From Escherichia phage BUCT-XGG-1, in sequence record PP069513: DNA of 49,653 nt; one strand, given 5' to 3'. Position 1 is the first letter of the stretch. Each line of letters opens with the position of its first letter. Below are positions 34,301 to 48,656 of this stretch, in pieces. The notes below the pieces were generated by a model that was not told the DNA's origin, did no database searches, and saw only the letters and a list, made by a program, of their open reading frames with translations. Position numbers and translations under genes: made by a program.

Positions 34301-34334
34301 TTTAAATTTCCTTTTGGGTTAATGTACGTGATTG

Positions 34335-34364: not shown

Positions 34365-34399
34365 TAGTGGGTAGAATATTTATTTTATCTTAATTGATC

Positions 34400-34420
34400 A
34401 AAAAACCTCCCGAAGGAGGT
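34400..34420 (-). terminator. intrinsic terminator
   Basis: ACCTCC TTCG GGAGGT with T6 on minus strand after 34438..34914. Confidence 0.55.
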
Positions 34421-34437
34421 CTTTGTTTTTATACCAA

Positions 34438-34914
34438 TTACTTCTGCAGTAACTGAACTTCAACAAGCGCTGGCTCGCCAGACACTGCATCAGCCGCCTG
34501 GAATCCACCAGCCGCAGTACCAAGAGCAAAGTCAGCAGCACCAGCGACGGTTGAACTTGCAATACCAGATGCGTTAACGGTGATTGCTGAGCCAAATGCC
34601 GGGGCAGCGTCTAAGCTAGTTTGAACCCAGATTCGACCATGTGTCATTACGTTTGCCACTTGGTAATTATCAATATCACCAGCTGCACCGCCATAAGTTC
34701 CTTTTGGTGATTCGTAGTGCGATTTAACCAGAACGCCGTATACACTTTCAGCTGACGGAGCGGCCAGTACTTTGTGACCATCAACAACAGAGCTAACCCC
34801 AACAGCCGTACCAACCTGACGAACCAAGCTGGATGACATTGCGCAAGCACCATCAATGTTATAAAGGGAAGTATCTGCGATCATGCCCGCAGTGGCTTGA
34901 CGACGAATTGCCAT
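34438..34914 (-). CDS. capsid decoration-like protein (putative)
   Basis: Gly/Ala/Val-rich 158-aa protein between scaffold and capsid genes (lambda D-like position). Confidence 0.4.
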   Translation of the reverse strand: MAIRRQATAGMIADTSLYNIDGACAMSSSLVRQVGTAVGVSSVVDGHKVLAAPSAESVYGVLVKSHYESPKGTYGGAAGDIDNYQVANVMTHGRIWVQTSLDAAPAFGSAITVNASGIASSTVAGAADFALGTAAGGFQAADAVSGEPALVEVQLLQK

Positions 34915-34926
34915 GATATTTTATCC

Positions 34927-36063
34927 TTACTTTTTGTTAATTAATTTTTTCAGTCGATCTTGCGGATCAAATGATTCGTTTTCTTTACCGTCAGATTTGT
35001 CGGCAGTGCCGAAAACCTTAACGCGCTGAGCGGCCATTTTATCAGACTCTTTAGCCAAATCAAAGGCAGCTTCGATGTACGAGTCAGATTTCTCAGTAGC
35101 ATCAATACCAGAAACCTCCTTGATGTAGGCAACCTTAATTTCTTTTGCGCCAAGTCCATCGCACTTAATGCCAATCTCACCAGCAATAGCAACCAGGCCA
35201 GCCAGCTCATCAGCGTCAGCTTTTGCTTTAGCAACAGCGGCTTCGATCTGTGCTGGAATGCCATCCACTTTAACTTTCAGAGCGTCGCGCTCAGCTTCAA
35301 TTTCGCTAACCTTTTTCTTTTCTGCATCTGCATCTGCCTTGATGGATGCGATGTGGTCAGCTACGTCTTTTGACACTTCCACTTCTGCGGAATCAATTTT
35401 GATTTTTACGGTCATTTTACTTTCCTCTTTTGGTAATTGAACATGCTCATCATATTTAATTTCTTCTGAGCCGTCAAGGTTTAATCTGGCAATACCTGCG
35501 CGACCGTGCTTTACCTTGGCGACGTGGTTTGGGATGATGTTCGTTTGCAGCACGTCAAACTCTTCCCACTCGTCGGTCATGACGGTTCCGTTAGGGAATT
35601 GCGCCTCCATTCCCTCAGCGTCATCCTTGAAAACATACTCGCCAGTATTGACGTTTCCCCACCCTTCGCGGTGAATGTCATTGGTCTTGTAACCAACCGA
35701 CAATTCTGCGGCGTCGCCACGCTTGGCGGATTCAATTGATTCCTTGTCGTGAATTACGATCGGACACTTCAAGCCAATACCATCACGACGACCAGCGCCG
35801 GATAGTGAGCCGACAACAATCTTCCGCGCGTTGCTTGTGCTTACTTCCTGGTGGCCCTCTACGATCGGCATACCGCGAAACAGTTCCATCGCCTCGGCCT
35901 TGAACACTTCGTTTGCTGGTCGGAACTCACGCTGAATTGTTCCATCGGCACGCATATATTCCTGAATACCGATTCGCGCAATGATTGGCTCATCATGCAT
36001 GAATCCGTTAGAGTCAAAGCGTGCTTTCAGTTGCACGCTATCGTATCGTTGCTTAGTGGTCAT
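34927..36063 (-). CDS. prohead scaffold / protease-like protein
   Basis: 378 aa with Ala/Lys/Glu/Asp-rich helical C-terminal half typical of scaffolds. Confidence 0.5.
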   Translation of the reverse strand: MTTKQRYDSVQLKARFDSNGFMHDEPIIARIGIQEYMRADGTIQREFRPANEVFKAEAMELFRGMPIVEGHQEVSTSNARKIVVGSLSGAGRRDGIGLKCPIVIHDKESIESAKRGDAAELSVGYKTNDIHREGWGNVNTGEYVFKDDAEGMEAQFPNGTVMTDEWEEFDVLQTNIIPNHVAKVKHGRAGIARLNLDGSEEIKYDEHVQLPKEESKMTVKIKIDSAEVEVSKDVADHIASIKADADAEKKKVSEIEAERDALKVKVDGIPAQIEAAVAKAKADADELAGLVAIAGEIGIKCDGLGAKEIKVAYIKEVSGIDATEKSDSYIEAAFDLAKESDKMAAQRVKVFGTADKSDGKENESFDPQDRLKKLINKK

Positions 36064-36545
36064 TTTTTACTCCCGTGATTTTTATGAAATTTATATACAG
36101 ACTCCGCAACCTTTCTTGCAGAGATTGCGTCATCTTTTCTATCGTATCTACCAAGGAATTTCTCCTTTTTGTCCACCCTTATTGAAGCAATCCATTTACT
36201 GGTTCTATTACACCAGCTAACGCCAACAACTCCGCTTTTGTTTGACTTGCTCATGGATACGTTTTTGCAATTCTCTTGTCTAGTAGTTACGAGCCTTAGG
36301 TTTTCTATCCTGTTATCATCTCTGATATGGTTTATATGGTCAATCTCCATTCCTTCAGGTATTTTACCATGGTGCATCTCCCATATTACCCTATGAGCCG
36401 GAGTTAGCCTACCCATAATCCTAACGTAAATATATCCACCCTCATCCTTCCAGCCAGCCATATCGCCAACTTTAACCCTTTTCGATGTCGGATTTTTCCA
36501 GATGAGATCTTTCTCTATATGATAAAAATAATCATTGAAATTCAT
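36060..36545 (-). CDS. HNH-AP2 homing endonuclease
   Basis: EIDHINHIRDDNRIENLRLV core and AP2-like tail; inserted between head morphogenesis and scaffold genes with 4-nt overlaps. Confidence 0.8.
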   Translation of the reverse strand: MNFNDYFYHIEKDLIWKNPTSKRVKVGDMAGWKDEGGYIYVRIMGRLTPAHRVIWEMHHGKIPEGMEIDHINHIRDDNRIENLRLVTTRQENCKNVSMSKSNKSGVVGVSWCNRTSKWIASIRVDKKEKFLGRYDRKDDAISARKVAESVYKFHKNHGSKK

Positions 36546-37312
36546 AGTTGATCCCCACTGCTATCAAATGATGGCACGGCCCAGCATCGGCAGCCGTAAG
36601 GCTCACCAGGGAACGGATGGTCACTTGAGATCTCAATACGTTTCCCTTCCCATTTTACGTGCTGCAATCGCTCGCGTTCATCCAGCTTACCATGCCAGAA
36701 GTAGTGAGTTACTCCCGCATCCTCCAGGCGCTGGCGCATCAGTACGCTGTTCCATGTGGACACAATTCCACGTGAGCGATTCACAGTCCAGCCAGTATAC
36801 ACCTTGTAGCGCTGCTTTAAAACTTCATCAATCTGCTGACTTGTTTTATTGCGCACGTTTTCGACGCGTAGGTTTTGCGACCAGTCAGAGATAATGTCGT
36901 TCGATAACTTTAGGATGCTAGCCTCAGCCGAACCGCGCCATTGCGATGACTTCTCGCGATACCATGACTCATTGGCATTCGCCCCGAGCGCGCCAAGCAA
37001 GATCACAGATTGATTCTTTCCGCCACCAGCCTTTTTCGCCACGTTGAGGAATTGCCTTGAGTTAAACTTGTAGATAGTCAGAGCCAGCGCCGGAAGCGTG
37101 GCAACAATCGCCGCGATCAGTCCGGCAGCATATTCCGCAAGATCACTTTCTGCATCATTGATTTCTTCGTCCGAAGCGTCAAACCTCATGCCGCCAGTAA
37201 GCGATCTGGCTTTCTTTGCCATCTCGCCTGCGAATATTGACAATGAGCGGCTAAGCTGCCGCTCGCTTGCTTCGGGGTAACTCCATTGGTTTACAATGCC
37301 GTTAACCTTCAT
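36542..37312 (-). CDS. head morphogenesis protein (minor capsid, Mu F/SPP1 gp7-like)
   Basis: Position after portal; C-terminal ...GEPYGCRCWAV motif. Confidence 0.6.
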   Translation of the reverse strand: MKVNGIVNQWSYPEASERQLSRSLSIFAGEMAKKARSLTGGMRFDASDEEINDAESDLAEYAAGLIAAIVATLPALALTIYKFNSRQFLNVAKKAGGGKNQSVILLGALGANANESWYREKSSQWRGSAEASILKLSNDIISDWSQNLRVENVRNKTSQQIDEVLKQRYKVYTGWTVNRSRGIVSTWNSVLMRQRLEDAGVTHYFWHGKLDERERLQHVKWEGKRIEISSDHPFPGEPYGCRCWAVPSFDSSGDQL

Positions 37313-37314
37313 GA

Positions 37315-38577
37315 TTATTCCTCGTTGTTCACCTGCTGGTTAGTTGGCTCGATCTCTTCAATCTCCGGCGCTGGGCCTTGAATCTTGATAAAGTCTGCGA
37401 TTGCCTCAAGTGTATCACGCGCTTCGTCACGGTCAATTACCTGCTCTGTCAACAGCTTTGAAAGTGACTCAACGTTATTTTTCAGCGTCTCTGATTGCTC
37501 TTTCTCGCTTGGCATTGATAGCGGCTCAAAGCGGATTGACCATTCCTCCTCCTGAATAAGCATAGGAAGCAACCACTCCAGAAGAGGTCTGTAATACTCG
37601 TTACGCTTGCGGTCAATCATCTTATAGAAAGTCTCAAGCGCTGTATTCTGACTCGCTGACACGCCGCCTACGTTCTTATTCTTGAGGATAATCTCATGAA
37701 TGCCAGAGTAGTTCACGATGCGGTCCATTTTCTTATCCAAGAAAGCATCAACGCCGCCAATGTCAGAGTTAAGAACGTCGTATTCTTCGTCGGTGGCATC
37801 AATGCCAATCGTCCGGCCTACTCCGCTATTGTCATCAACCTGAGCTAATCGCATTCGAGCCGCGTAACGCCCTTCGTCATCGTCGCACAAATCAGCCAGT
37901 CCTTTTGCTTTCCATACGCCTTGCTGCTTACGGCGCAATAGCTGAGTAGCCAGTTCTTCACAGTAGTTGTAGTCCAAGATGGCGTCAATCAAGCCCTTAC
38001 TCAGCACCGATGCGCCCCAATCGTTATTCTGCGCGCGAAGTGAGTTAGGTACGCGCTCGCCGCCGTTAACATAGATTCGCGTGTAGTGTACGTCGTATTC
38101 CGGTACGCTGCCGCCAGGGTTAATGGTGTAAATCTTCGGCATACCATAGCGAGGGTTGCGTGCGTTCTTCTCGCGGTCCTTGATGCGGATCTGCTCTTTC
38201 TCGTACACTCGGATTGATTCAAGCTGCGCACCTTCCTTGATTGGTGATGTCAGGAGTCGGTTGTCACGGACGACGGCAACGATAGCGGAACCACCATAAA
38301 GCCGCTCCCATGAGAACGCCTCGACAATCTGCTTGTTCAGCTTCATGCCATCCCACAAAGATTTGAACGCCTTCTCATCCTTCACCCCGTCCAGGCCGAA
38401 TCCAGGGAAAACCATTTCCTCTGGAATAACATCGACAATTTTCTTAGCCATAGGATCATCAATGTAAAACTGCGTCACATACATCTGATCGTATAGCGAT
38501 GCAAGCGCGCCGCCTGCCGTACCTTCACCCTTAAACGTCTTGTTGTAAGAGTCGGTCTTTACGCTTTTTTTACTCAT
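37315..38577 (-). CDS. portal protein
   Basis: 420 aa directly downstream of large terminase; acidic C-terminus. Confidence 0.75.
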   Translation of the reverse strand: MSKKSVKTDSYNKTFKGEGTAGGALASLYDQMYVTQFYIDDPMAKKIVDVIPEEMVFPGFGLDGVKDEKAFKSLWDGMKLNKQIVEAFSWERLYGGSAIVAVVRDNRLLTSPIKEGAQLESIRVYEKEQIRIKDREKNARNPRYGMPKIYTINPGGSVPEYDVHYTRIYVNGGERVPNSLRAQNNDWGASVLSKGLIDAILDYNYCEELATQLLRRKQQGVWKAKGLADLCDDDEGRYAARMRLAQVDDNSGVGRTIGIDATDEEYDVLNSDIGGVDAFLDKKMDRIVNYSGIHEIILKNKNVGGVSASQNTALETFYKMIDRKRNEYYRPLLEWLLPMLIQEEEWSIRFEPLSMPSEKEQSETLKNNVESLSKLLTEQVIDRDEARDTLEAIADFIKIQGPAPEIEEIEPTNQQVNNEE

Positions 38578-38628
38578 CCGCTTTTCTCCAAATAAAAATG
38601 GCTAGGTTGTTAGCTTAGCCATTATACA

Positions 38629-40215
38629 TTATTTGCGCATTCCCGCTAATCGTTTCATTCGCGCTACCGGATCATCAAGCAAGTTCATTTCGAAGTTTCC
38701 AGCATCAACCACGTTATCCACGATATCATCGTGAGGATGGCTATCATCAAAGGTGAAGCCTACCAGTTCCGCTTCCATTTCAGTAAGCATTGGGTGAGAT
38801 TCAGGAAAAACGATTCGCCCTGCTTTCATGATTGGTGCTGCGTCCATTGCACGCGTAACCTTGTCGGTATCTCGCTGCACTGGCGTGATGTCAATCGGGA
38901 GCTTCTTGTTAATTGACTGGATCAGGCCCGTACCGCTCGCCTTGTCTTCAATGTAAACCTTGCGTAATGACGTCTTGTTCTCCTTCGCCCACTTAAAGCA
39001 GTTGCCATAAAAGTTAAGGGCCATCGTCTCAAGGTCCGGCGCTTCCCACTTACCGCGAATGCCGTCGATGAAATATACGCGATCCTTATACTTGCCCCAC
39101 AAAACAAAGACGCTGTAGTCGTGAATTTCCTCGGCCTTCTGCGCAGTATCCGCAGTGGTAAAAAGGTATTCGAAGCGATCCGGTTTTGGCATATTGGCTT
39201 TCTCACCGTCGCCGTAATACTGGAACCAGTCCGACTTAAACGCATTGCCACCAAGCGCAATGGGCTTCTGCTGATACTGAGACTCGAAGGTGTACAGGTC
39301 AGCTTCGCGCAACGCCAGTAGGCTTTCTGCGCTTTCCTTCGCAGGCCAGAAAGAGAAGTGCTCAACACCGTCAATCATTACCGACGGGGACGATAGCACG
39401 TCTTTATCAAATTCCTCTTTCAACCAGTCAGGAAGCGTGTCTCTGTATTCCTCAGTTACCAGCGCCGGAATGATTACCTGCTCAAACTTCATGCCACCCA
39501 TGCCGCCATTCATCAGGAACCACGTCGAGTCGTTAACGTGCAGTCGCTGCTGCACAACAACGCATGGCGTTCTGTCAGTCATACGACGTGATCGCACGGT
39601 GTTTTTTAGCAGTGTATGAGCCGCCTTGCGCTTAACGGACGAATACATGTCTTTCGGTTTGTCGGGGTCATCAAGCGTTAACATTCCGGTAAAGCTCCAG
39701 GGTTTACTGGGGTCTTCCATGTACCCGCCACGCTTACCAGTTACCTGGCCGCCGATCGCACGTGATGTTAACGTCAGCCACTCCTTATCGTTATCGTTAA
39801 GTGCGGTAATATCGCCACCGGACGCCTTAGCTAGTTTGGTAGGCCATAGCTCCTGGAACTCATCGCAACCGATAATCTCACGCGTCCTGATCCCGTTATC
39901 CTTCACCAGACTGTCAGAGAACGAAAGGTTCAAATTTCGAACCTTCGGACTCTTTAACATCCCGTACACTGGCATGTGGATGGAGAAGATCTCAGTTTTG
40001 CCGGAGCCTGGCGTGATGTTGAATATCACGTTCTGAGCCTCACCTTTGATGATCTGCTCAACCTTCCAGCAAAGGTAAGTGAAGTGCCAGTTGCTTTGGA
40101 ACTTCTGAGCCTGCCCGATCTGGAACCAGATTCGTAACATCTTTTCGAATGACTGCTCAGAGAGCGCCTTTATTGCCTGCTTTCTTGCAAGGTCGAGATC
40201 TTCCCACTGGATCAT
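38629..40215 (-). CDS. terminase large subunit
   Basis: Walker A-like ITPGSGKTE near N-terminus, nuclease-type C-terminal half, 528 aa. Confidence 0.8.
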   Translation of the reverse strand: MIQWEDLDLARKQAIKALSEQSFEKMLRIWFQIGQAQKFQSNWHFTYLCWKVEQIIKGEAQNVIFNITPGSGKTEIFSIHMPVYGMLKSPKVRNLNLSFSDSLVKDNGIRTREIIGCDEFQELWPTKLAKASGGDITALNDNDKEWLTLTSRAIGGQVTGKRGGYMEDPSKPWSFTGMLTLDDPDKPKDMYSSVKRKAAHTLLKNTVRSRRMTDRTPCVVVQQRLHVNDSTWFLMNGGMGGMKFEQVIIPALVTEEYRDTLPDWLKEEFDKDVLSSPSVMIDGVEHFSFWPAKESAESLLALREADLYTFESQYQQKPIALGGNAFKSDWFQYYGDGEKANMPKPDRFEYLFTTADTAQKAEEIHDYSVFVLWGKYKDRVYFIDGIRGKWEAPDLETMALNFYGNCFKWAKENKTSLRKVYIEDKASGTGLIQSINKKLPIDITPVQRDTDKVTRAMDAAPIMKAGRIVFPESHPMLTEMEAELVGFTFDDSHPHDDIVDNVVDAGNFEMNLLDDPVARMKRLAGMRK

Positions 40216-40748
40216 AATTCCCCCAAAATATCCTTAACGGCTTCTTTAAATTCATCAGTAGTCACGGACACCGCGCCAGCAGATACGTTGTTCTGCACGT
40301 TCACTTCTGCAGCCTTGTCGATACCAATGTCTTTGCCTACGAATCCGGCGTTGATAAGGTTGGACGCAGCTAACTGATATTTCTGTTCAATAATTACTGA
40401 GTCGATGAACTCCATTACCTCAGAGAATCCAGGCGACGCGCGCCAGCTTTGGATCGCACCGGAGGTAACGCCGCAATAAAGCTGGAAGCCGTTGAGCGTG
40501 AACACTCGCGGCTTGTGCACTAGGTTCTCAGTGACAACGCCCTGGAAGCTCGCCGTTTCGATTGCCTTAATTGCCTGGTCCTCGGCCCATGAGAAATATT
40601 TAACCGCAAGGTTGAATACAGTCTCAGGCGTCATTGGGTGACGATGGTTCAGGTTGGCAATGTCGCCATACTTTTTATTGTATAGCTCTTTGAAGTTACC
40701 GATTCGAACCTTCTCGTTCGCGTGACTGGTGAAGTTTTCGTCTTTCAT
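40212..40748 (-). CDS. terminase small subunit (putative)
   Basis: 178-aa gene overlapping start of large terminase by 4 nt; first gene after late promoter. Confidence 0.5.
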   Translation of the reverse strand: MKDENFTSHANEKVRIGNFKELYNKKYGDIANLNHRHPMTPETVFNLAVKYFSWAEDQAIKAIETASFQGVVTENLVHKPRVFTLNGFQLYCGVTSGAIQSWRASPGFSEVMEFIDSVIIEQKYQLAASNLINAGFVGKDIGIDKAAEVNVQNNVSAGAVSVTTDEFKEAVKDILGEL

Positions 40749-40777
40749 AGTTGTTTCCCCTTGTTGAATAGGAATGA

Positions 40778-40786
40778 ATTATACCA
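40778..40786 (-). promoter_or_regulatory. extended -10 promoter (TGGTATAAT) for packaging/head operon
   Basis: Minus strand CTGGTATAAT ~30 nt upstream of the terminase small-subunit ATG. Confidence 0.45.
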
Positions 40787-40796
40787 GATTGCAGGC

Positions 40797-40823
40797 ATAA
40801 AAAAAGCACCCCGAAGGATGCTT
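40797..40823 (-). terminator. intrinsic terminator
   Basis: AAGCATCC TTCG GGGTGCTT followed by T7. Confidence 0.65.
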
Positions 40824-40830
40824 AAATGAA

Positions 40831-41052
40831 TCAGTCAACGTATTTGATGGCCCCAGGCTTCCGCCCCGATCGAATGTCGTTAATCTCGTTAAACACAGAG
40901 ATAAACTTGCCGGATACTCGCCACTGCTTTTTCTTCTCATCGTATCGCGCTTGAGCGAATTGCCCGCGCTTGATTAGCTTGGCAATCCAGGCGCAAGATA
41001 ACGAGATGATCAGGACGGAAGCGAAAATAAAACCATAAATAAACGTCAGCAT
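40831..41052 (-). CDS. small membrane protein (73 aa)
   Basis: N-terminal hydrophobic helix; followed by terminator. Confidence 0.4.
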   Translation of the reverse strand: MLTFIYGFIFASVLIISLSCAWIAKLIKRGQFAQARYDEKKKQWRVSGKFISVFNEINDIRSGRKPGAIKYVD

Positions 41053-41234
41053 GAAATACCCCTTACATAATTAACTAAAAATTTATGAGTCGTTGTATCG
41101 ACCCCGCTCATTTCCTTCACCTTTGAAACGGCTTCTTCGGCGCTACTGGCCTCGACATTTGCTTCAAAGTTTTGCTTACACGATGCGCATGTGCGCCCCA
41201 TGAGAAGGATTGTTAATTTAACTTCGTATATCAT
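41046..41234 (-). CDS. hypothetical protein (62 aa)
   Basis: ORF overlapping start of downstream gene. Confidence 0.35.
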   Translation of the reverse strand: MIYEVKLTILLMGRTCASCKQNFEANVEASSAEEAVSKVKEMSGVDTTTHKFLVNYVRGISC

Positions 41235-41452
41235 TTAATGACCTTTGAATGTCACTGAACCCATGGTTATCAATACTGTTATTGTGCTCAATACTAATAT
41301 TTACATACACCCCATTCATTAATCCTAAGTGCTCTTTCTGCTAGCCGCCTTTTAATCTTTGATTATACTTGGAGATACTTCCAGTAACGGTGTCTTTTAC
41401 AATTACAGTTACAATCTTCATATTTACCTCAATGCACATAGTGCTGGTTATT

Positions 41453-41529
41453 TGGCGTTCAGCGCTGGACTCGAACCAGCAACTAAGACTTAGGAGGTCT
41501 TTGCGTTATCCTGTTAACGCCAGCAGAAC
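41453..41529 (-). tRNA. tRNA-Arg (anticodon CCU)
   Basis: Hand-folded cloverleaf: D stem GCGT/ACGC, anticodon stem AAGAC/GTCTT, loop CU-CCU-AA, T arm GCTGG-TTCGAGT-CCAGC, encoded CCA; acceptor stem has one U.U mismatch. Confidence 0.65.
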
Positions 41530-41734
41530 TGAATTAAGGCCGGTTACGGATCTCCGGCGAGCTTTCACAATGCTCCGACAAACAACGCAGTCTCTTTTGG
41601 CAGCTGCCGCCATTTGCAAGTTTACGCCTTATCTTGCATGGTCCAAGCTATATATACGACTTACGAATCGCTCGTTGCCAATTAGTGGCCTCGTCTGTTT
41701 ACGGGATTAAATATACCAGTCAGTGAGATGTCTG

Positions 41735-41929
41735 TCAATCAACTTTTTTAAAAGTTCCATACGTCGGGCAGACAGGGTAGTCGATCGCGACCTTATTCCC
41801 CTCGTCACTGTAGACGTAAACGTATCCCTGGGAATCAACTTTTTCCACTGTGCACTCGCAGCCAGTAAAGAACTCATAACCGCGCGCGCCGATGCACTTG
41901 ATCACGTCACCTTTCTTGATCTTACTCAT
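41735..41929 (-). CDS. hypothetical protein (64 aa)
   Basis: Start taken at MSKIKKGDV with GGAGAAAG RBS; Cys-containing. Confidence 0.4.
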   Translation of the reverse strand: MSKIKKGDVIKCIGARGYEFFTGCECTVEKVDSQGYVYVYSDEGNKVAIDYPVCPTYGTFKKVD

Positions 41930-42161
41930 AGACACTTTCTCCGTTTTCACGTTTGCCAACCAGACCCTTAAGATAACCAGCAATCCACACAAATTTGTCA
42001 CGCGATATAATGGTCGCTACGGCATCATGGTGCTTGGTAATAATTGAGGCAACCAGCTTATCATCTTTGCGATCTTTCTTGTTCAGATCGGCATACGCTG
42101 CGTTTAATTGCTTGGCTTTGGCCTTTACTGCGTTCATCTGCGGGTCAGTTAATCCAAACAT
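41922..42161 (-). CDS. hypothetical protein (79 aa)
   Basis: ORF in operon. Confidence 0.4.
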   Translation of the reverse strand: MFGLTDPQMNAVKAKAKQLNAAYADLNKKDRKDDKLVASIITKHHDAVATIISRDKFVWIAGYLKGLVGKRENGESVYE

Positions 42162-42487
42162 TATTCGTACACCTCATCAATGATTTCGCTGATCTTGTTC
42201 ATTATGTCAACCTTGGCGCAATCCCATTCCGGTGAGCCTGGTTCTTCCCATGATCCGCCAGGGCCGTGACACGTCATGTTATCGATAAGCTCTGACACTT
42301 CGCTTTCCAGAACATTGCGCATGTGCTCAATCTGCCAGCACTCAACCGAGTCTTCTGCGTCGCGGTAAGCCTTGAACTCACCGCCGAGAACTTTTTGCGC
42401 CGCTTCTGCTGATTCCTTCGTTTCGTGAACGGTCCGATGAATCTCTTTGCCGAACTTGCCAACGCCGTAAGTGTGTATGTAAATCAT
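42161..42487 (-). CDS. hypothetical acidic protein (108 aa)
   Basis: ORF, 4-nt overlap with upstream gene. Confidence 0.45.
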   Translation of the reverse strand: MIYIHTYGVGKFGKEIHRTVHETKESAEAAQKVLGGEFKAYRDAEDSVECWQIEHMRNVLESEVSELIDNMTCHGPGGSWEEPGSPEWDCAKVDIMNKISEIIDEVYE

Positions 42488-42696
42488 TCTTCGATCACCT
42501 TATATTCATTTTCGCTAATACTGATCTCGTTGCCTACGTGCACAAACTCAGTTTCACGGATAGCCTTGATTGAAAGGTCGCCGTCCTTGTATTTACCTGA
42601 CACTTCGATTACGTCGCCAACCTTAAAGCCGCAATCTTCCAGGGTGAGAGCGTAGTCATCGGTCACATAGTTGACGTCGATAATTTCAATTTTCAT
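42484..42696 (-). CDS. hypothetical protein (70 aa)
   Basis: First gene after box promoter 42727-42770; RBS GAGGAAG. Confidence 0.45.
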   Translation of the reverse strand: MKIEIIDVNYVTDDYALTLEDCGFKVGDVIEVSGKYKDGDLSIKAIRETEFVHVGNEISISENEYKVIEE

Positions 42697-42726
42697 TTCT
42701 GCTTCCTCGTTCGTTTCGATGGGGTA

Positions 42727-42770
42727 ACTATACAGCCACCCCGATTATGAGTTTTAACAAAAAGTGCTAT
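42727..42770 (-). promoter_or_regulatory. box promoter candidate
   Basis: Box ATAGCACTTTTTGTTAAAA (42752-42770) containing TAG stop of upstream gene; hairpin with TGTATAGT (22-bp gap); leader CATCGAAACGAA. Confidence 0.5.
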
Positions 42771-43165
42771 CGTTGGTGATTTCGTGCATTCTTTTTCATT
42801 GCGGCGAATGCGATAAAGCAGAACATCCCAGGCTCAGTAAATCGAAGCTTACCGTACTGGCGGCACATGCGGCGAAATTTACGCTTGTCGTTTAACACGT
42901 TAGTTACACGTTTTTCAGTCACCACTAAGCTGCGCGGACCCTTTACTACCACGAAAGTGACGGCTGGGCCACTTGCGAGATTCAGGTTGTACTTGCTTCC
43001 TTTCTGGACGGCGTACCATGAAAGACCGTTATAATCATCAATGACATCAGCCACGTTGAGGTGACGGTTAGGTCGGCGCTTGGCCTCGTATACTTGACCA
43101 ACCTGAAAGTAATCATTAAACAGCATCGCTAACCCTGGATGTATTTTAACACAACGTAATTTCAT
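42767..43165 (-). CDS. hypothetical basic protein
   Basis: Start taken at MKLRCV (GGGGA RBS); stop TAG lies inside the box. Confidence 0.45.
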   Translation of the reverse strand: MKLRCVKIHPGLAMLFNDYFQVGQVYEAKRRPNRHLNVADVIDDYNGLSWYAVQKGSKYNLNLASGPAVTFVVVKGPRSLVVTEKRVTNVLNDKRKFRRMCRQYGKLRFTEPGMFCFIAFAAMKKNARNHQR

Positions 43166-43167
43166 GG

Positions 43168-43326
43168 TTATCCCCATTCGTTTTCGTCAAATTGTTGATT
43201 GTTGATCTGAGTGCGAACCTCTTTAACCATCTCTGAGAACTCATCGGCTGAGCACTGCATAGTCTGAGTGGCCAGTAGTTGCTTAAGGATGACGGCTTGC
43301 TTGTCTGACAGGTTGATAGTAATCAT
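43168..43326 (-). CDS. small hypothetical protein (52 aa)
   Basis: Unlisted ORF MITINLSDKQAVILKQ... with GAGAGGAAAG RBS. Confidence 0.3.
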   Translation of the reverse strand: MITINLSDKQAVILKQLLATQTMQCSADEFSEMVKEVRTQINNQQFDENEWG

Positions 43327-43355
43327 TTTGCTTTCCTCTCGTTTGGTGTGAACTA

Positions 43356-43401
43356 ACTATAACAAAACCCGCCGGAGCGGGTTTAGCAATTCGTGCTATT
43401 T
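43356..43401 (-). promoter_or_regulatory. box promoter candidate
   Basis: Box 43382-43401 abutting TAA of kinase gene; hairpin CCCGCTCCGGCGGG; TGTTATAGT (22-bp gap). Confidence 0.5.
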
Positions 43402-44020
43402 ACCAAGGAATATCGTCGGCCCAATCATCATCCATTGAAGGACTAACCAAGCAAGCGCGAACTACTTTAAGGACGCCATCATCAACATCACCATTTACCA
43501 GATGCACATCATGCTCGTTATATTTCTTGTAATCAGGGAAGTGCGATTCCTTGATGCGGATGTAATCACGGCTATCTCCCGCGAAAGTCTTGCCATCCAT
43601 GAACAAGCGGACCAGGGTAACATCGTGACCATCTTCAACGAGTCGAATCACTTCATCGGGGAAGCCGCCATCAGTGCAAACAAAACAGAAGCCTTCATCA
43701 CACAGACGGATATGTTCGCTCATCAATTTGCCGAACTGCTGATTGCCAAAAAGCGGCTTGACCACCGTTTCGCTAATCCAGATCATGAACTCACGGCAGG
43801 TCTTGCCACCGAGAAAGACCTGAGGCTGCTCTTTCTGATCGCGGTCGTCGTATGCTGTGATGAACTTTGAAAAAGCCCTGGCCCCAAGGATGGATGCTGC
43901 AATCTCAAACATCGGACGTTTGAAGCTGGTAGGGATGCAATTGTAATCTGCTGCCAGTGCATTGCCGATCGTGTCTTTACCTACGCCAGCAGGGCCGTTT
44001 AGAATGATAATCTTTGACAT
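43400..44020 (-). CDS. P-loop kinase (dNMP kinase-like) with SSB-like tip DDIPW
   Basis: Walker A GPAGVGKDT; C-terminus DDDWADDIPW. Confidence 0.6.
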   Translation of the reverse strand: MSKIIILNGPAGVGKDTIGNALAADYNCIPTSFKRPMFEIAASILGARAFSKFITAYDDRDQKEQPQVFLGGKTCREFMIWISETVVKPLFGNQQFGKLMSEHIRLCDEGFCFVCTDGGFPDEVIRLVEDGHDVTLVRLFMDGKTFAGDSRDYIRIKESHFPDYKKYNEHDVHLVNGDVDDGVLKVVRACLVSPSMDDDWADDIPW

Positions 44021-44069
44021 TTTGATATTCCTGAGAAGTGGGCGCGATGTGCGCCAGTTAAGGTTAGTT

Positions 44070-44687
44070 TTATTTACCGCTTACGAGATTGCATTTTTTG
44101 CACTGGCGAACGCCATGTGGAGGTAGCGGATCGCTAAATTCGTGCTCGCAAACTTTTTCTACGCCGTGAGACTTAAGTCCAGAGTGCACGTTGTCGCCAT
44201 AGTCACACACCTGATAGGTGGTGATGCCGAGGCTTCTGAAGTGCGCGATAACGCTAGGACTATCATCAAAGGCCGCAGTGATGCGGTGCAAGCCAATGTA
44301 TCGTAAAAATTCTTCCTTGATGATCGTATCCTTTCGATTGTCATCAGCTTGGCGCATGACCAGAAAGTTGTATTTAGCGCCAGCATCATACAGCCATTGC
44401 GTTGATTCTTCAACAACTGCATCCGATCGACCAGTAAGTACGATGATGAAAGCGCCGGAAGCGAACAGGCCATTCATTACGTCAATCGTTTCCTGGAATG
44501 GCGTGTCGAATTTACTCAGTGAGTTAAATTCAAGCCATGACTCAGTGAGGTGTAAATCTTTGGTCGGTAGCTTATGCAGGCGGTGAGTTCCGTCTGACAG
44601 AGTGCCGTCGAAATCAAAGCAGTATACTTTTTTATTGACTGCAACTGTTTCTAAATGGTGTTTAATCATGGTGTATAGCTGATTCAT
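44070..44687 (-). CDS. HAD-superfamily phosphatase
   Basis: HAD motif I FDFDGTLSD near N-terminus; C-terminal Cys pairs. Confidence 0.65.
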   Translation of the reverse strand: MNQLYTMIKHHLETVAVNKKVYCFDFDGTLSDGTHRLHKLPTKDLHLTESWLEFNSLSKFDTPFQETIDVMNGLFASGAFIIVLTGRSDAVVEESTQWLYDAGAKYNFLVMRQADDNRKDTIIKEEFLRYIGLHRITAAFDDSPSVIAHFRSLGITTYQVCDYGDNVHSGLKSHGVEKVCEHEFSDPLPPHGVRQCKKCNLVSGK

Positions 44688-45136
44688 AGTAAGTATCCTG
44701 TAGTTATCACTCTGTATGCTGTTCTTTTGCCAACTCCCATTGCGTCAGCTATATCCTGATAGGTCATGCCATCAGTTCTCATTCTTAACATCTTTCTTGA
44801 GTCTTCGCTAGTTACTATTGACTTCGGGTTCTTAAGCCCCTCAACGCTTCGGAACCTGCCCTTCGATACGCAATCAATCACGTTATCATGCTGACTACCT
44901 ACCGATAGGTGCTTTGGATTAATGCAAGAAGGATTATCGCATGAATGCATTATTACACCTTTTACGCATTCATAATCTACATCATTGCTTATGAAGTAAG
45001 CTACTTTGTGCGCCCTTCTAGTAGCTCCAGCGTATCTTACCTGGCCATATCCATCAACGGTCCTTGAGTTATTCCACTCTATACAATCATCCGTCTGCCT
45101 CCTTATCATTATTATTAATTCATCTACCTTTTTCAT
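44684..45136 (-). CDS. HNH endonuclease with C-terminal HTH
   Basis: HSCDNPSCINPKHL HNH/zinc motif and C-terminal HTH (MTYQDIADAMGVGKRTAYRV); 4-nt overlap with phosphatase. Confidence 0.65.
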   Translation of the reverse strand: MKKVDELIIMIRRQTDDCIEWNNSRTVDGYGQVRYAGATRRAHKVAYFISNDVDYECVKGVIMHSCDNPSCINPKHLSVGSQHDNVIDCVSKGRFRSVEGLKNPKSIVTSEDSRKMLRMRTDGMTYQDIADAMGVGKRTAYRVITTGYLL

Positions 45137-45167
45137 GTTGCCACCCTTTCGTGTGGTTGGTGTGGGG

Positions 45168-45212
45168 ATTATACCAGTCAGGATGAATCCCCTTTTAACA
45201 AAAAGTGCTATT
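45168..45212 (-). promoter_or_regulatory. box promoter candidate
   Basis: Box 45194-45212 containing TAG stop; hairpin GGGGATT..AATCCCC holding TGGTATAAT (22-bp gap). Confidence 0.5.
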
Positions 45213-46014
45213 TGATATAGAACTGAGCCACTACGCCACCATCAGGATTTATGATTGCGTATGCGTCACCGAGCGTTGCCTTGGCATTCATAACCTTACC
45301 AATTCTCCTGGCTTCCCAACGGTAATCACCTTTTAATCCAGAGCAGAAGGCATCTTGCGTGATTTGAATAAGTCGCGGATCACATCCTGGTTCGCATTCA
45401 TCAATTTCATACGCGTACTCGCAACCATTGATAAACTCATTGCCTCCAACATGGTAGCAAACCGCCACCTTGCGATCGCGTGCTGATTCACATTCACCCA
45501 CCGCCCATACGTGACGATTGCTATAACCGTAACCTCCGCTTCGTGGTTCCATTTTCGCGGTTGACATGGTAAGCGCCTTGCCTTCACCGAAATTGCTACC
45601 GAAAGTGAACTTGGCATCTTTCGTCAGGTAATCAAACTTTACGCCATCATCTACGACGGTTTTCCCTGAGCCAGCCGCAAGCTCATTCACGAATGCATCG
45701 ACAGTGCTGTGACACGGATCGCCATTGTACTTAGGCAAATCCTTGAGCAATTGCTCACATGCTTCGTGAATCAACTTTCCAGCCACCGCTTTGAGGATTG
45801 CTTGCTCAACATGGTCAGCGATAATCGACGGTGAAGAAATTTGATGTTTTTGAGTCCATTCTAAGGCCTTTAAACGCTCCTGTAACGAATCGATTTCTTG
45901 CTTATGCATTGCGTAGGATACCCATGCTCCATCGTCGCAGGCTTGCATTCCGACGCCGTGAATGTTGACGCTGGTTGCCACTGCTACATGGTTAAAACGG
46001 TTGATGCTGTTCAT
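45208..46014 (-). CDS. hypothetical Cys-rich protein (268 aa)
   Basis: ORF after box promoter; no recognisable motif. Confidence 0.5.
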   Translation of the reverse strand: MNSINRFNHVAVATSVNIHGVGMQACDDGAWVSYAMHKQEIDSLQERLKALEWTQKHQISSPSIIADHVEQAILKAVAGKLIHEACEQLLKDLPKYNGDPCHSTVDAFVNELAAGSGKTVVDDGVKFDYLTKDAKFTFGSNFGEGKALTMSTAKMEPRSGGYGYSNRHVWAVGECESARDRKVAVCYHVGGNEFINGCEYAYEIDECEPGCDPRLIQITQDAFCSGLKGDYRWEARRIGKVMNAKATLGDAYAIINPDGGVVAQFYIK

Positions 46015-46055
46015 ATGTGATTCCTCAGTTGGTTTGTGTTCACTTGACAGGAGAC

Positions 46056-46099
46056 ACTATAGCTAATGTCTCCGAGCAAGTTTTAACAAAAAGTGCTAT
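46056..46099 (-). promoter_or_regulatory. box promoter candidate
   Basis: Box 46081-46099 containing TAG stop; hairpin GGAGACA..TGTCTCC with GCTATAGT (22-bp gap). Confidence 0.5.
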
Positions 46100-46314
46100 T
46101 CGATGAACCCAACGCGAACCGCAGCATCAAGTGTGATGTAATCATCGGCCGTCAACGATGAGTGATAGGTAAAGATTCCAGCCTGGATGCCCTTTACCAA
46201 CTGATCCTGTGTGATGCGTGAGATTTTAACAACCCCGACATCGCTACCAGTGCGCAGGATAACATCGCCTACCGCGCAAAACTCAACGCCTTTACTGTTA
46301 ACATAGACTTGCAT
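46096..46314 (-). CDS. hypothetical protein (72 aa)
   Basis: ORF; stop inside box. Confidence 0.4.
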   Translation of the reverse strand: MQVYVNSKGVEFCAVGDVILRTGSDVGVVKISRITQDQLVKGIQAGIFTYHSSLTADDYITLDAAVRVGFIE

Positions 46315-46492
46315 GATTATTGCTCCTTCAACTTTTGGTAGATGCCCTTAACCACTCCGAGCGAAATGGCCAGGGGCCAGATAGCGGCAACGATTACCAT
46401 GTCGTACCACTTGTTGTCACTATTGCTAACATCTTTTGCAATTGCATAAACCGGAAGTGCGCCAAGAGCGTAAAGCAGAATGCATAAAGTAA

Positions 46493-46723
46493 TCATAAAT
46501 ACCCCTTCTCAGCGCGGTGGGCCGCTTCCATCAGATACACTGCCAACTGGCGCGCCTGGTCTGGCGTGTACACCATGTAACTTGATGCGTCAACATACTC
46601 TTCAGGATTGAAGTCAACGCACACCTTGAATGCAAAGCCCTGGGTGCTGCTATGCAGTTTCTTTACCATTACCTCGGCCTGTTCGCCTGAGTCGTCAGCG
46701 ATGCGTACGGCGGTTGTGCTCAT
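46493..46723 (-). CDS. hypothetical protein (76 aa)
   Basis: ORF after box promoter; RBS AAGGGG. Confidence 0.4.
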   Translation of the reverse strand: MSTTAVRIADDSGEQAEVMVKKLHSSTQGFAFKVCVDFNPEEYVDASSYMVYTPDQARQLAVYLMEAAHRAEKGYL

Positions 46724-46762
46724 AAATTACCCCTTAGTTTATTGTTTCACTTCAATGAGTGC

Positions 46763-46806
46763 ACTATAGCAAATGCACTCACGGCAGTTTTAACAAAAAG
46801 TGCTAT
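46763..46806 (-). promoter_or_regulatory. box promoter candidate
   Basis: Box 46788-46806 containing TAG stop; hairpin GAGTGCA..TGCACTC with TGCTATAGT (22-bp gap). Confidence 0.5.
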
Positions 46807-47093
46807 CGTTCATCTTCTCTGGAGCATCCCTTGCCGCAACCATGGCGACCAACTCCCACGATCCCGGCGCCGCTTAAGCTGATGTATTCCTGACCAGTGT
46901 CCTTATCGGTGATGACGTATATCGCTCTGACGTTCTCATATGCCAGTTCATCCCTGAACTCCTGAATCTTCACAACCTGGACGCGATCGTTGACATTCAC
47001 TGGCATCTTCTGCCGAGCCTCTGAATCTACACAGGTGCTTCCGAAATCACATCCAGCCAGAGCTAGTGCTGCTAATAAAATTAGTTTCTTCAT
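46803..47093 (-). CDS. lipoprotein
   Basis: MKKLILLAALALAGC signal peptide with lipobox. Confidence 0.5.
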   Translation of the reverse strand: MKKLILLAALALAGCDFGSTCVDSEARQKMPVNVNDRVQVVKIQEFRDELAYENVRAIYVITDKDTGQEYISLSGAGIVGVGRHGCGKGCSREDER

Positions 47094-47290
47094 TCGATAA
47101 TCCTCACTACTTTCTCTTTGCGATGCGGTGCGCCGGACTTATGCAGCCAGTAGCGAGCCTGGTAAAGCTGGCTTGCATGGGCCACTGTAACCCACCAGAA
47201 CAAAGCCACCCGTTTTTGGACGGAATACCACTTGACCGGATGACCGAAGGTGGTAGTCGTGTCAACCAATGCGATCCTGAATTTACTCAT
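47090..47290 (-). CDS. hypothetical protein (66 aa)
   Basis: ORF with 4-nt overlap to downstream gene. Confidence 0.35.
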   Translation of the reverse strand: MSKFRIALVDTTTTFGHPVKWYSVQKRVALFWWVTVAHASQLYQARYWLHKSGAPHRKEKVVRIIE

Positions 47291-47348
47291 CGGCTTCTGC
47301 CTCCACTTCCTCAGCCGCCCTGATGAGTGCCGCCGCCAGTTTGCGGGC

Positions 47349-47501
47349 TTACTTAGGACTGTATTGCATCAGTGTCTGGCCGCCCCTGTAGTAATCCGGA
47401 TCGAAGTCAATGGACACAACGGTATCCCAATCTCTTTTTGTGATGGCTACTTCAGCCTGGTCAAAGTAAACATCTTCAATACGAACATTTTTCATCTTCA
47501 T
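47349..47501 (-). CDS. hypothetical protein (~50 aa)
   Basis: Start taken at MKMKNV after AAAGAGGAAA RBS. Confidence 0.35.
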   Translation of the reverse strand: MKMKNVRIEDVYFDQAEVAITKRDWDTVVSIDFDPDYYRGGQTLMQYSPK

Positions 47502-47525
47502 TTCCTCTTTGTTGTCTATGGGGTA

Positions 47526-47571
47526 ATCATAGCTGACTACCCGATCCATTGTTTAGCAATTCGTGCTATTC
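47526..47571 (-). promoter_or_regulatory. box promoter candidate
   Basis: Box 47552-47571 containing TAG stop of 47566..48123; hairpin GGGTA..TACCC with GCTATGAT (22-bp gap). Confidence 0.5.
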
Positions 47572-48123
47572 ACCATTCAGGAGTGATTTAGCTTTCCGAT
47601 AAAACTCGACAGCCTTTCTGACCTCATCTGCATCATAGCCATGAATCATGTCTGAGCTTGCCTGCAATTTGCTATGAGATTTGCGCTCAACCGATCTCCA
47701 TGAGTCGCACCACTTGTGAATGTCTCTCCCATACATGCCCACCAGGTATGGGTGTGCATATATCTTGTCACCAATAAGGCAAATGATTCCCGAGTCCTGT
47801 AGTGATGGTAGGATGTTGTCAATCAGGTTATTCATTACTCCATTACGCTCGACGAACGGCTGGACCTTTCTGATCGCCTCATATGTTGAGCGAACTCCCA
47901 CAACGCCTTTTCCATTTATCGCTTGCTTCCAGATCTTTTCAACCACGACGCATTGTTCACGATTTAGGTTTGCGCGACGCATAACTTCTAATTCGCACCA
48001 GTACTTTTGTGACTGTCGGTATCCGTTAGCATTGATTGCAACTCGTAGTGGTGGAAGCCCATCTTCCGTAGCAATCTTCACAATCTGCTCATCTGTCAGC
48101 TTCTCTTCGTTAAAATCAAACAT
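47566..48123 (-). CDS. mini-paralog of the 527-aa early protein
   Basis: N-terminus MFDFNEEKL..LPPLRVAINANGYRQSQ and segment NGKGVVGVRS..CLIGDKIY match the two ends of 2247..3830. Confidence 0.55.
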   Translation of the reverse strand: MFDFNEEKLTDEQIVKIATEDGLPPLRVAINANGYRQSQKYWCELEVMRRANLNREQCVVVEKIWKQAINGKGVVGVRSTYEAIRKVQPFVERNGVMNNLIDNILPSLQDSGIICLIGDKIYAHPYLVGMYGRDIHKWCDSWRSVERKSHSKLQASSDMIHGYDADEVRKAVEFYRKAKSLLNGE

Positions 48124-48128
48124 CCCCG

Positions 48129-48656
48129 TTATTTCGTCTCCCTAATCATTTCCTGGTACATTTTGATTGCCTTGATGGCTCCTGTAATCTCATCGCCCTC
48201 AAAGTTAGTCACGGATGGCATCAGCTTGAGTATTTTGACCTTAAAGTCGCTCACGGCCTTCTCTGCAATCTGGCCGTTTGCCTTCACTCGCTTTCCTGTC
48301 TGGATTGCGCCATCAACCAAAGACAGATAAGCACACCGAACCTCGACGTCATCACCGAAATCACCATCCTTAATTGAAAGTTTTGCACGAACGTTTGCCT
48401 CCTGTATCTCTGGCATCCTGGCTACCGTATTGGCGACATATGACGCCTTCAGCTTTGACATGCTGTACTTGCCACCTACATCCAGATCCTCACGACTTAT
48501 GCCTCCTATATCACTAGATGTGAGGCCGTAAACCTGGCGAGCTATTAGATGGATTGGAACGTGGTAGCTGCGGTTCTCGGACTTGAGCGCTTGCTCAGCC
48601 ATGTAGCGGATAACGTCACCGAGGCTTACTGCTTCTTTGTGCTCTGACATACTCAT
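48129..48656 (-). CDS. hypothetical protein (175 aa)
   Basis: First gene of leftward early operon. Confidence 0.5.
   Translation of the reverse strand: MSMSEHKEAVSLGDVIRYMAEQALKSENRSYHVPIHLIARQVYGLTSSDIGGISREDLDVGGKYSMSKLKASYVANTVARMPEIQEANVRAKLSIKDGDFGDDVEVRCAYLSLVDGAIQTGKRVKANGQIAEKAVSDFKVKILKLMPSVTNFEGDEITGAIKAIKMYQEMIRETK

Follow-up and report, generated by a model that had tools for sequence, protein, structure and literature searches.

A tRNA-Arg(CCU) gene in a variable tRNA slot ahead of the terminase genes of a T1-like phage

The tRNA gene and its surroundings

The window analyzed here is the whole 49,653-bp stretch of Escherichia phage BUCT-XGG-1 (record PP069513), a T1-like siphovirus of the genus Nouzillyvirus (Drexlerviridae). 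The only tRNA gene that ARAGORN calls in it is a tRNA-Arg with anticodon CCT at 41453-41529 (-), exactly the coordinates at which the initial annotation had folded a tRNA-Arg(CCU) by hand. RF00005 of Rfam matches 41456-41529 (-) with 49.1 bits (gathering score 29, E = 1.3e-07), about 20 bits over the threshold. The match is full length (model positions 1-71), with one non-standard acceptor-stem pair flagged. The predictors thus accept the fold, and the core observation of a tRNA gene is correct far beyond chance. The features of the locus are collected in Table 1.

The tRNA reads GUUCUGC-UG-GCGU-UAACAGGAUA-ACGC-A-AAGAC-CUCCUAA-GUCUU-AGUU-GCUGG-UUCGAGU-CCAGC-GCUGAAC-G-CCA. Its acceptor stem consists of G1-C72, U2-A71, U3-A70, C4-G69, U5.U68, G6-C67, and C7-G66, so the U.U mismatch reported earlier at pair 5:68 is read directly from the sequence. 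The same is true of the canonical T arm (GCUGG-UUCGAGU-CCAGC) and of the encoded CCA, which follows discriminator G73. U8, G18G19, A20, U33, A37, U54U55C56, and A58 are all present. ArgRS identity elements are A20, C35, U36 or G36, and A73 or G73, and the acceptor stem contributes no major one. The sequence contains this set as A20 (D loop ...GGAUA), the C34 C35 U36 anticodon, and G73.

Upstream of the tRNA, a putative promoter provides the best sigma-70 match in 30000-49653. Its -35 hexamer shares nucleotides with the stop codon of ORF 41735-42001. It is kept in CJ19 and ESCO41, and a promoter is aligned with it in Rogunavirinae. Transcription would start near 41703, to judge from the promoter sequence. 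A different promoter had been proposed in the initial annotation, namely a degenerate box (41675-41690) located ~21 bp before TATATA. The sigma-70 scan does not call this box, the spacing is too long for sigma-70, and the window holds one copy (0.38 expected by chance) and no second, so it was rejected as a promoter. The box is a hairpin that starts ~13 nt into the predicted leader. The corresponding hairpin is GCCAC-CAA-GUGGC in ESCO41 and CJ19, and CUAGC-CAA-GCUAG in TR2, where the stem sequence is entirely different but the CAA loop is the same.

The leader is conserved at its 5′ and 3′ ends, and its middle (~41580-41655) is unique to this phage, with no donor found in 50,697 phage records. 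No minus-strand ORF of at least 40 aa lies within 41530-41703, and no Rfam family matches 41150-41800 at E ≤ 10. One stable fold of the whole leader was also considered and found no support, as its stability is unexceptional (z = -0.54) and conservation is limited to the terminal hairpins.

ORFs 41046-41234 and 41735-42001 are 500 bp apart, in agreement with the ~500 bp first noted. However, the tRNA does not lie alone in this gap, because a small ORF and an RNA motif (41533-41578) are also there. The small ORF (41218-41421) has GAGG six nt upstream of its ATG, and carries TAG at 41341-41343 where its homologues have GAA or GAG, with the frame otherwise intact. Both of its halves are conserved, with 61% identity across the TAG. 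Over the 218 nt that follow the tRNA, identity to the AHP24_77/phiEB49 gp62 ORF is 72-76%. The closest match is TR2 for the tRNA and AHP24 for the gp62-like ORF. These sequence comparisons suggest that the two were probably acquired together from a donor absent from the database. Incidentally, the tRNA could not be a suppressor of the adjacent amber codon, as the anticodon CCU cannot read UAG.

Downstream of the tRNA, no terminator was found before the two conserved small genes, of which the 62-aa CxxC protein gene has no Pfam match. The hairpin at 40823-40804 probably terminates the tRNA-containing unit, and distant relatives have an equivalent hairpin and T-run at this position. With a strong promoter and no terminator before that hairpin, the tRNA appears to lie in its own unit of ~0.9 kb, which would be driven by a constitutive-type host promoter and stand outside the late operon proper. 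Just past the hairpin, an extended -10 element, missed by the promoter scan because it lacks a good -35, suggests that terS has its own promoter.

Table 1 Features of the tRNA locus in the window
Feature	Coordinates	Strand	Basis
Near-consensus sigma-70 promoter (putative), TTGACA-17-TGgTATATT, extended -10	41710..41738	-	scan 11 of 12, TG present
Non-coding leader RNA, ~174 nt, from promoter to tRNA	41530..41703	-	alignments
5′-proximal leader hairpin (the former box), GCCA-cuaau-UGGC	41675..41690	-	alignments
Conserved double hairpin directly upstream of tRNA	41533..41578	-	covariation, covariance model
tRNA-Arg(CCU), 77 nt, CCA encoded, G73, U5.U68, extra U in D arm	41453..41529	-	ARAGORN, Rfam, alignment, folding
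Small ORF, homologue of AHP24_77 and phiEB49 gp62, in-frame TAG	41218..41421	-	sequence comparison
62-aa CxxC small protein, 3′ boundary of slot	41046..41234	-	conserved downstream of slot across Drexlerviridae; DUF3667-like annotation in TR2
73-aa DUF7299 small hydrophobic protein, last gene of unit	40831..41052	-	PF23973, E = 7e-28
Intrinsic terminator-like hairpin, AAGCAUCC-UUCG-GGGUGCUU then U7	40804..40823	-	scan and sequence
Extended -10 TGgTATAAT, just past terminator, ahead of terS	40778..40786	-	read from sequence
terS	40212-40748	-	PF16677 (GP3_package)

The slot in related phages

The best genome matches are P818, TH30, XT34, PH1062, TH21, ESCO41, and CJ19, with ~88-92% identity over 70-83% of a 24.6-kb query. 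The window is ~91% identical to P818, which is without a tRNA. There is no near-identical record in the collection, so the window represents a new Nouzillyvirus member.

When a 1-kb query around the tRNA was used, close relatives matched in two flanking pieces only, as the region is ~680 bp there and 1,001 bp in the window. This slot is empty in CJ19, P818, TH21, P817, and others, cleanly so in CJ19 and in a metagenomic relative (L038). Most Nouzillyvirus genomes have no tRNA in it, and ESCO41 has a tRNA-Arg(UCU) there.

On the other hand, closely similar tRNAs are found elsewhere in Drexlerviridae. Forty Drexlerviridae records have at least 80% query coverage; 36 of them are tRNA-Arg(CCU) records with 90.9-96.1% identity over 100% of the length, and four more have ~80% identity. 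Carriers are Christensenvirus TR1-3 and, in Rogunavirinae, Rogue1, JK06, AHP24/AHS24, phiEB49, Sf12, and Sd1. They share a gene order of small ORFs, ~250 nt of non-coding DNA, the tRNA, one or two small ORFs, terS, and terL. In the window, the tRNA likewise follows the conserved leader and precedes the small CxxC ORF, with terS/terL farther downstream on the same strand.

The window tRNA and the Rogue1-type tRNAs are thus alike in sequence (91-96% identity), in anticodon and loop, in T arm, and in encoded CCA. Their slots are alike in the succession of promoter, leader double hairpin (not in TR2), tRNA, small ORF(s), terS, and terL, and AHP24 and phiEB49 also have the gp62-like ORF downstream of the tRNA. 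The differences are that the window genome belongs to another genus, Nouzillyvirus, that its tRNA has U5.U68, an extra U in the D arm, and an Rfam score lower by 3-10 bits, that its AGG use is 6.3 per 1000 codons while the Rogue1-type carriers have a strong AGG bias (12-14 per 1000), and that its neighbouring ORF contains the amber codon.

The slot also accepts other cargo. The UCU allele is commoner than CCU, with ~70 records at ≥90% identity versus ~40. The tRNA-Arg(UCU) of ESCO41 and Braunvirinae (12469I, BASEL AugustePiccard, JeanPiccard, SU57) shares with the window tRNA the slot (in ESCO41 also the leader motif), the amino acid, the rare AGR codon box, the acceptor-T-arm architecture, and the encoded CCA. 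It differs in its anticodon UCU, which reads AGA, and its sequence similarity to the window tRNA is limited. The Sd1 slot contains tRNA-Trp(CCA) followed by tRNA-Arg(CCU), and that of phiEB49 contains tRNA-Arg(CCU) and a tRNA-Val(AAC) called by ARAGORN only. A second, class-II-like tRNA-like gene is present in the slots of Opt-79 and ESCO41. The cassettes that come and go at this point thus comprise Arg-CCU, Arg-UCU, Trp-CCA, and a class-II-like tRNA with a UAU anticodon loop.

Such tRNAs have been in print since 2012, when Rogue1 was described to encode "an arginyl-tRNA ... recognizing the rare codon AGG", shared with JK06 (PMC3496638). An AGA-reading tRNA-Arg is known in SU57 (PMC7718038). 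The presence and absence of tRNA-Arg is mosaic among Rtp-like phages, and MSK, placed here with the UCU carriers, has a tRNA-Arg whose anticodon is not given (PMC8421802). The tRNA gene itself is therefore of little import, a single tRNA-Arg for rare AGR codons having already been described in T1-like phages.

Capture of the gene from the host was considered and ruled out. BLAST of the phage tRNA against 5,426 complete E. coli genomes gave no match, and it is identical to argW at 51 of the 77 aligned positions (66%). Therefore, it is a phage-lineage gene. The two tRNAs share the anticodon, the 7-nt loop CUCCUAA, A20, and a weak 5:68 pair (U5.G68 in argW), and they differ in the stems and in the discriminator, which is A73 in argW and G73 in the phage. 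Taken with the slot comparisons, the window tRNA is a new member of a known, accessory, and horizontally exchanged Drexlerviridae tRNA family in its usual slot.

A variant copy and AGG codon usage

Among the aligned CCU-type homologues, seven have U.G at pair 5:68 and AHP24 has U-A, and the window alone has U.U. As argW has U5.G68 there as well, position 68 is naturally weak and variable. A second change unique to the window is an additional U that follows U13 of the D arm, absent from all nine aligned homologues, because of which the window tRNA is 77 nt long rather than 76. This extra U was overlooked in the initial annotation. The form expected in this family is 76 nt long, with a 9-nt D loop and a paired 5:68. 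All aligned CCU-type homologues have 76 nt and a paired 5:68, so the window copy fits neither in length nor in pairing. It is a variant allele, still within the Drexlerviridae slot tRNA-Arg(CCU) family. An exact-pattern scan of IMG/VR gave 0 matches to this allele, and a degenerate pattern scan returned known Rogunavirinae genomes and nothing else.

In the nearest-neighbour model, the cloverleaf is the minimum-free-energy fold at -23.5 kcal/mol, compared with -24.4 kcal/mol for TR2. It holds this rank solely thanks to the extra U, which makes the D stem 6 bp long; when U68 is kept and the extra U removed, the cloverleaf ceases to be the best fold. In this model, a 6-bp D stem would pull A14 and A21, whose register is ambiguous owing to the extra U, from their usual tertiary contacts, and the net effect in three dimensions is uncertain. 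The two changes probably lower the efficiency of the tRNA and do not abolish it.

We considered that the tRNA could be a decaying hitchhiker, which came with a recombined segment, has been under relaxed selection, and is already impaired or non-functional, so that its blemishes reflect early pseudogenization or sequencing errors. Three changes unique to this phage fall within about 190 bp, namely G68U, the D-arm U (both absent from the nine aligned homologues), and the TAG that replaces GAG/GAA in the gp62-like ORF. They may result from recent relaxed selection or sequencing error, and the nonsense codon in the co-acquired ORF would fit relaxed selection acting on the insert as a whole. In addition, the Rfam score of the window copy (49.1 bits) is the lowest of the family, the homologues scoring 52-59.3 (n = 9), and most Nouzillyvirus genomes do without a slot tRNA at equal AGG use; the slot is cleanly empty in CJ19 and in the metagenomic L038. 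However, the score is still 20 bits over the Rfam threshold, the universal and Arg-identity nucleotides are intact, and the cloverleaf is still the minimum-free-energy fold. Moreover, position 68 varies naturally (G in most, A in AHP24) and sits in the stem that carries no major ArgRS identity element. Any decay would also be very recent, as both halves of the gp62-like ORF are conserved. We therefore regard decay as the main rival explanation, though a rather doubtful one.

Codon usage was compared with a 50-kb sample of E. coli K-12. In the curated ORFs of the window, AGG amounts to 6.1 per 1000 codons (12.5% of Arg codons) and AGA to 6.3. When the same ORF caller was applied to both, AGG was 6.30 per 1000 in the window and 0.93 in E. 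coli, and 42 annotated E. coli K-12 genes gave 0.68 for AGG and 1.22 for AGA. AGG is thus about 7-9-fold more frequent than in the host gene sample. The host gene that would read it, argW, has one copy in each of the 5426 E. coli genomes examined.

Within the window, AGG is 6.7 per 1000 in the early-like small-ORF blocks, 4.3 in the packaging/head/tail block, and 1.0 in the replication block. It reaches 13.9 in the tail-fibre gene (14283-16232) and 37 in four HNH/His-Me homing endonuclease genes (Pfam), where it makes up 49% of the Arg codons. The major capsid and major tail genes contain no AGG and no AGA. A late-versus-early comparison had been suggested as a check, and late-gene enrichment was rejected by it (4.3 versus 6.7). 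Complete avoidance of both codons by the late genes with the highest expression counts against supplementation. AGG and AGA cluster instead in the homing endonuclease and tail-fibre genes, a distribution which suggests that genes gained by horizontal transfer are the main users of such tRNAs.

Siblings without the tRNA use AGG as often (CJ19, 6.5; P818, 7.6 per 1000), and so does ESCO41 with its UCU tRNA (6.8). As AGG is no higher in the window than in the tRNA-less siblings, the benefit, if any, would be small, and no codon signature has been left. The proposal that the tRNA supplements AGG decoding therefore stands in part; the excess of AGG over the host sample and the single-copy argW speak for it, and the lack of late enrichment and the equal use in siblings without the tRNA do not.

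At the family level, on the other hand, cargo type tracks codon bias in a comparison of seven genomes. With Arg-CCU, AGG is 11.9 and AGA 7.59 per 1000 in Rogue1, and they are 14.1 and 8.66 in TR2, giving an AGG/AGA ratio of 1.6 in both. With Arg-UCU, 12469I has 7.93 AGG and 11.1 AGA, a ratio of 0.71. Such a pattern would be expected if resident tRNAs supplement decoding and codon usage has co-adapted to them. The window does not reach the strong AGG bias of the CCU carriers (6.3 versus 11.9 and 14.1), and this lack of a match marks its copy as a recent, dispensable arrival. Within one genus, the slot is empty, Arg-UCU, or Arg-CCU without a change of codon usage, and the bias is matched in resident lineages, which makes a clean natural comparison between supplementation and hitchhiking.

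Possible roles of the tRNA and of its structured leader

The best explanation, which we consider somewhat probable, is that this is an accessory, exchanged tRNA-Arg(CCU), most likely with a role in modest AGG supplementation. Host RNA polymerase would start at the sigma-70 promoter (41738-41710) and make a transcript of ~0.9 kb, consisting of the 174-nt structured leader, the tRNA, the disrupted small ORF, and the CxxC and DUF7299 genes, which would end at 40823-40804. The tRNA would then be excised by host RNase P and 3′ processing enzymes, its CCA being encoded. Charging by host ArgRS is proposed because A20, C35, U36, and G73 are all present. The charged tRNA would add to the AGG-decoding pool of the single host gene argW, above all for the homing endonuclease and tail-fibre genes, and any fitness benefit would come from there. 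In Nouzillyvirus, the gene would be dispensable and recently acquired, its donor being similar to Rogunavirinae or Christensenvirus. It probably entered through a recombination event located between the leader hairpins, which are conserved, and the CxxC ORF.

Another conceivable role is counter-defence, in which the phage tRNA replaces or shields a host tRNA-Arg(CCU) depleted by a nuclease or modifying toxin, and variation at position 68 reflects escape from acceptor-stem cutters. Phage tRNAs do neutralize tRNA-targeting defences, with PARIS (PMC11464382) and retron effectors (PMC11555353) as precedents. Like T5 tRNA-Lys against PARIS and those against retron effectors, the window tRNA duplicates a host isoacceptor and has a putative host-type promoter. 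The nicks that retron Eco2 makes in tRNA acceptor stems lie 6-7 nt upstream of the CCA end, corresponding to positions 67-68, and the tRNAs that it cuts in vivo include host tRNA-Arg (PMC12916289). Position 68 is the sole variable acceptor-stem position (G, A, or U) among these phage tRNAs, and the stems of the window tRNA are far from those of argW.

However, Eco2 prefers C-rich acceptor strands, and which tRNA-Arg isoacceptor it cuts is not stated (PMC12916289). Anticodon-loop divergence has been proposed as a signature of nuclease evasion (PMC10264068), and this signature is absent here since the loop CUCCUAA is identical to that of argW. A literature search found no defence system specific for tRNA-Arg(CCU), so that the window tRNA, unlike the known counter-defence tRNAs, has no known cognate defence; it is also a single tRNA in a 50-kb phage. 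A tRNA serving ~1 codon per 1000 would be a poor target for stopping translation, and the matching of tRNA type to codon bias across the family is a prediction of codon supplementation. Replacement of a nuclease-targeted host tRNA, raised as a second option in the initial annotation, thus finds no backing in the undiverged loop or in the literature, and we consider counter-defence highly unlikely. The correspondence between the Eco2 nick site and the variable position 68 is regarded as a coincidence that invites speculation.

The leader itself deserves a description. Directly upstream of the tRNA, it folds into a double hairpin, GAGC-AUUGUGAAA-GCUC and then GCCGG-AGAUCCGUAA-CCGGC, the second of which can also be written GCCGG-A(G)AUCCGUAA-CCGGC. 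The double hairpin is kept in the tRNA-less CJ19, P818, L010, L016, L017, and L038. In these genomes, 10-18 nt separate its end from the ribosome-binding site of the CxxC ORF, and tRNA cassettes always lie between the double hairpin and the ORF.

Compensatory double changes were found in 6 of the 11 proposed pairs, including one pair of a possible 2-bp pseudoknot, among seven distinct but closely related sequence variants. In this covariation test, 98.7% of cells are paired, none of 500 shuffles reaches the observed value, and the slid controls are all zero. The covariance model finds exactly one copy per genome (62-74 bits), and the idea of extra copies before other operons was dropped with this single match. 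The model finds no double hairpin in TR2 or in the distant tRNA-less relatives recovered via terS. The latter, which have neither tRNA nor motif and are probably Klebsiella-infecting (BLAST), have a different leader. Among 14 matches in a metagenome scan for the motif, two were genuine (L028 with a tRNA and L038 without). The covariation test is accordingly based on seven sequences only.

Could the tRNA be an RNA-processing signal, whose 5′ cut by RNase P frees the structured leader (perhaps a small RNA that is stable) from the downstream mRNA and sets mRNA stability or translation, with decoding secondary? The tRNA is embedded in the unit between the leader and protein genes with no promoter or terminator of its own, and different cargoes replace one another in the slot (Arg-CCU, Arg-UCU, Trp-CCA with Arg, and odd tRNA-like genes). 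In T4, stable RNAs are co-transcribed and processed with the tRNA cluster, which may be taken as a precedent by analogy. However, in many tRNA-less relatives the leader joins the ribosome-binding site directly, so processing at this site is dispensable, and the cargo is overwhelmingly tRNA-Arg for rare AGR codons that tracks codon bias, which points to decoding. We find this role extremely unlikely; it and counter-defence are both unlikely to displace AGG supplementation as the explanation.

A further proposal concerns the double hairpin as a previously undescribed leader RNA, a candidate cis-acting element for the small-protein operon ahead of the terminase genes and a recombination anchor for tRNA cassettes. 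It is joined by a separate idea that position 68 is under selection by acceptor-stem-nicking defences. We hold both to be improbable. If functional, the double hairpin might direct RNA processing, affect stability, or act on transcription as a put-like element. The structured leader at the slot and the natural variation of the cargo are the only parts that deserve more attention, and the leader is easily testable. The slot, more than the tRNA, may be the most interesting object here.

The double hairpin is offered as a side observation from a small, closely related sample. The leader motif is unannotated in these genomes, and the GenBank CDSs that run over it are probably spurious.

Double-hairpin motif and mosaic leader

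An unannotated RNA motif of two hairpins lies at the tRNA slot, in one copy per genome, tRNA-less relatives included. In an alignment of slot sequences, compensatory changes occur in 6 of its 11 pairs, as judged from 7 distinct sequences, and no Rfam family matches the motif of the window leader. The leader is itself a mosaic. Both ends are conserved, unlike the middle (window 41580-41655, minus strand), which has no detectable match among 50,697 phage records.

GenBank places coding sequences over this non-coding leader in ESCO41, Rogue1 and Opt-79. They are probably spurious, because alignments of relatives show covariation of RNA type and indels that break the reading frame there.

Locations of features in the window and in related phage sequences (L-numbers)
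Feature	Sequence	Position	Strand	Remark
Double-hairpin motif	Window	41533-41578	-	
Double-hairpin motif	L021	32938-32982		
Double-hairpin motif	L022	25072-25116		
Double-hairpin motif	L023	7240-7284		
Double-hairpin motif	L024	3338-3382		
ESCO41_00044	L001 (ESCO41)	1936-2124		GenBank CDS over leader, antisense to it
Rogue1_0013	L006 (Rogue1)	1063-1185		GenBank CDS over leader
OPT79_80/81	L009 (Klebsiella phage Opt-79)	957-1160		GenBank CDSs over leader; OPT79_81 antisense to it
Second tRNA-like gene	L001	1755-1853	-	
Second tRNA-like gene	L009	1282-1380	+	
tRNA-Trp(CCA) + tRNA-Arg(CCU)	L012 (Shigella phage Sd1)	5885-6039		
tRNA-Arg(CCU) + tRNA-Val(AAC)	L005 (phiEB49)	1201-1354		tRNA-Val(AAC): ARAGORN call only
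HNH/His-Me homing endonuclease gene	Window	17492-17950	-	Pfam
HNH/His-Me homing endonuclease gene	Window	36060-36545	-	Pfam
HNH/His-Me homing endonuclease gene	Window	44684-45136	-	Pfam
HNH/His-Me homing endonuclease gene	Window	12768-13247	+	Pfam
527-aa protein	Window	2247-3830	+	
185-aa protein	Window	47566-48123	-	

Other tRNA cargo and AGG/AGA usage

In ESCO41 and Opt-79, a second tRNA-like gene directly follows tRNA-Arg. Its acceptor stem has 7 bp, its variable arm is long, and a canonical T arm is combined with an odd D arm; the fold scores z = -3.0. Its anticodon loop is CUUAUAC, so that the anticodon, UAU, would read the rare codon AUA. The Opt-79 copy scores 42.7 bits in Rfam; ARAGORN missed the ESCO41 copy and returned 'tRNA-???' for that of Opt-79. 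There is room in the slot for two tRNAs, as in Sd1 and, going by ARAGORN, in phiEB49, whose tRNA-Val(AAC) Rfam does not call at its gathering score.

In the four homing endonuclease genes of the window, AGG makes up 49% of arginine codons and AGA most of the rest (37 and 36 per 1000 codons, respectively). Neither codon occurs in the genes for the major capsid and major tail proteins.

Downstream of the tRNA and elsewhere in the window

The small ORF directly downstream of the tRNA (41218-41421, minus strand) is homologous to AHP24_77 and to gp62 of phiEB49, but an amber codon (TAG at 41341-41343) interrupts it in frame. Conservation extends on both sides of it, with 61% identity to the homologue. 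The amber codon might stem from a nonsense mutation of recent date, from an error in sequencing or from propagation on a suppressor host.

Upstream of terS, at 40778-40823 on the minus strand, lie a strong hairpin of terminator type with its U7 run and, immediately after it, an extended -10 element, TGgTATAAT. The hairpin, T-run and TGTTATAAT occur in matching order also in distant relatives that lack a tRNA and probably are Klebsiella phages.

Two proteins encoded on opposite strands, of 527 and 185 aa, resemble each other at both ends, with 69% identity over the first 42 aa of the N-terminus and 45% over a C-terminal stretch of ~92 aa, and the shorter looks like the longer minus its central domain.
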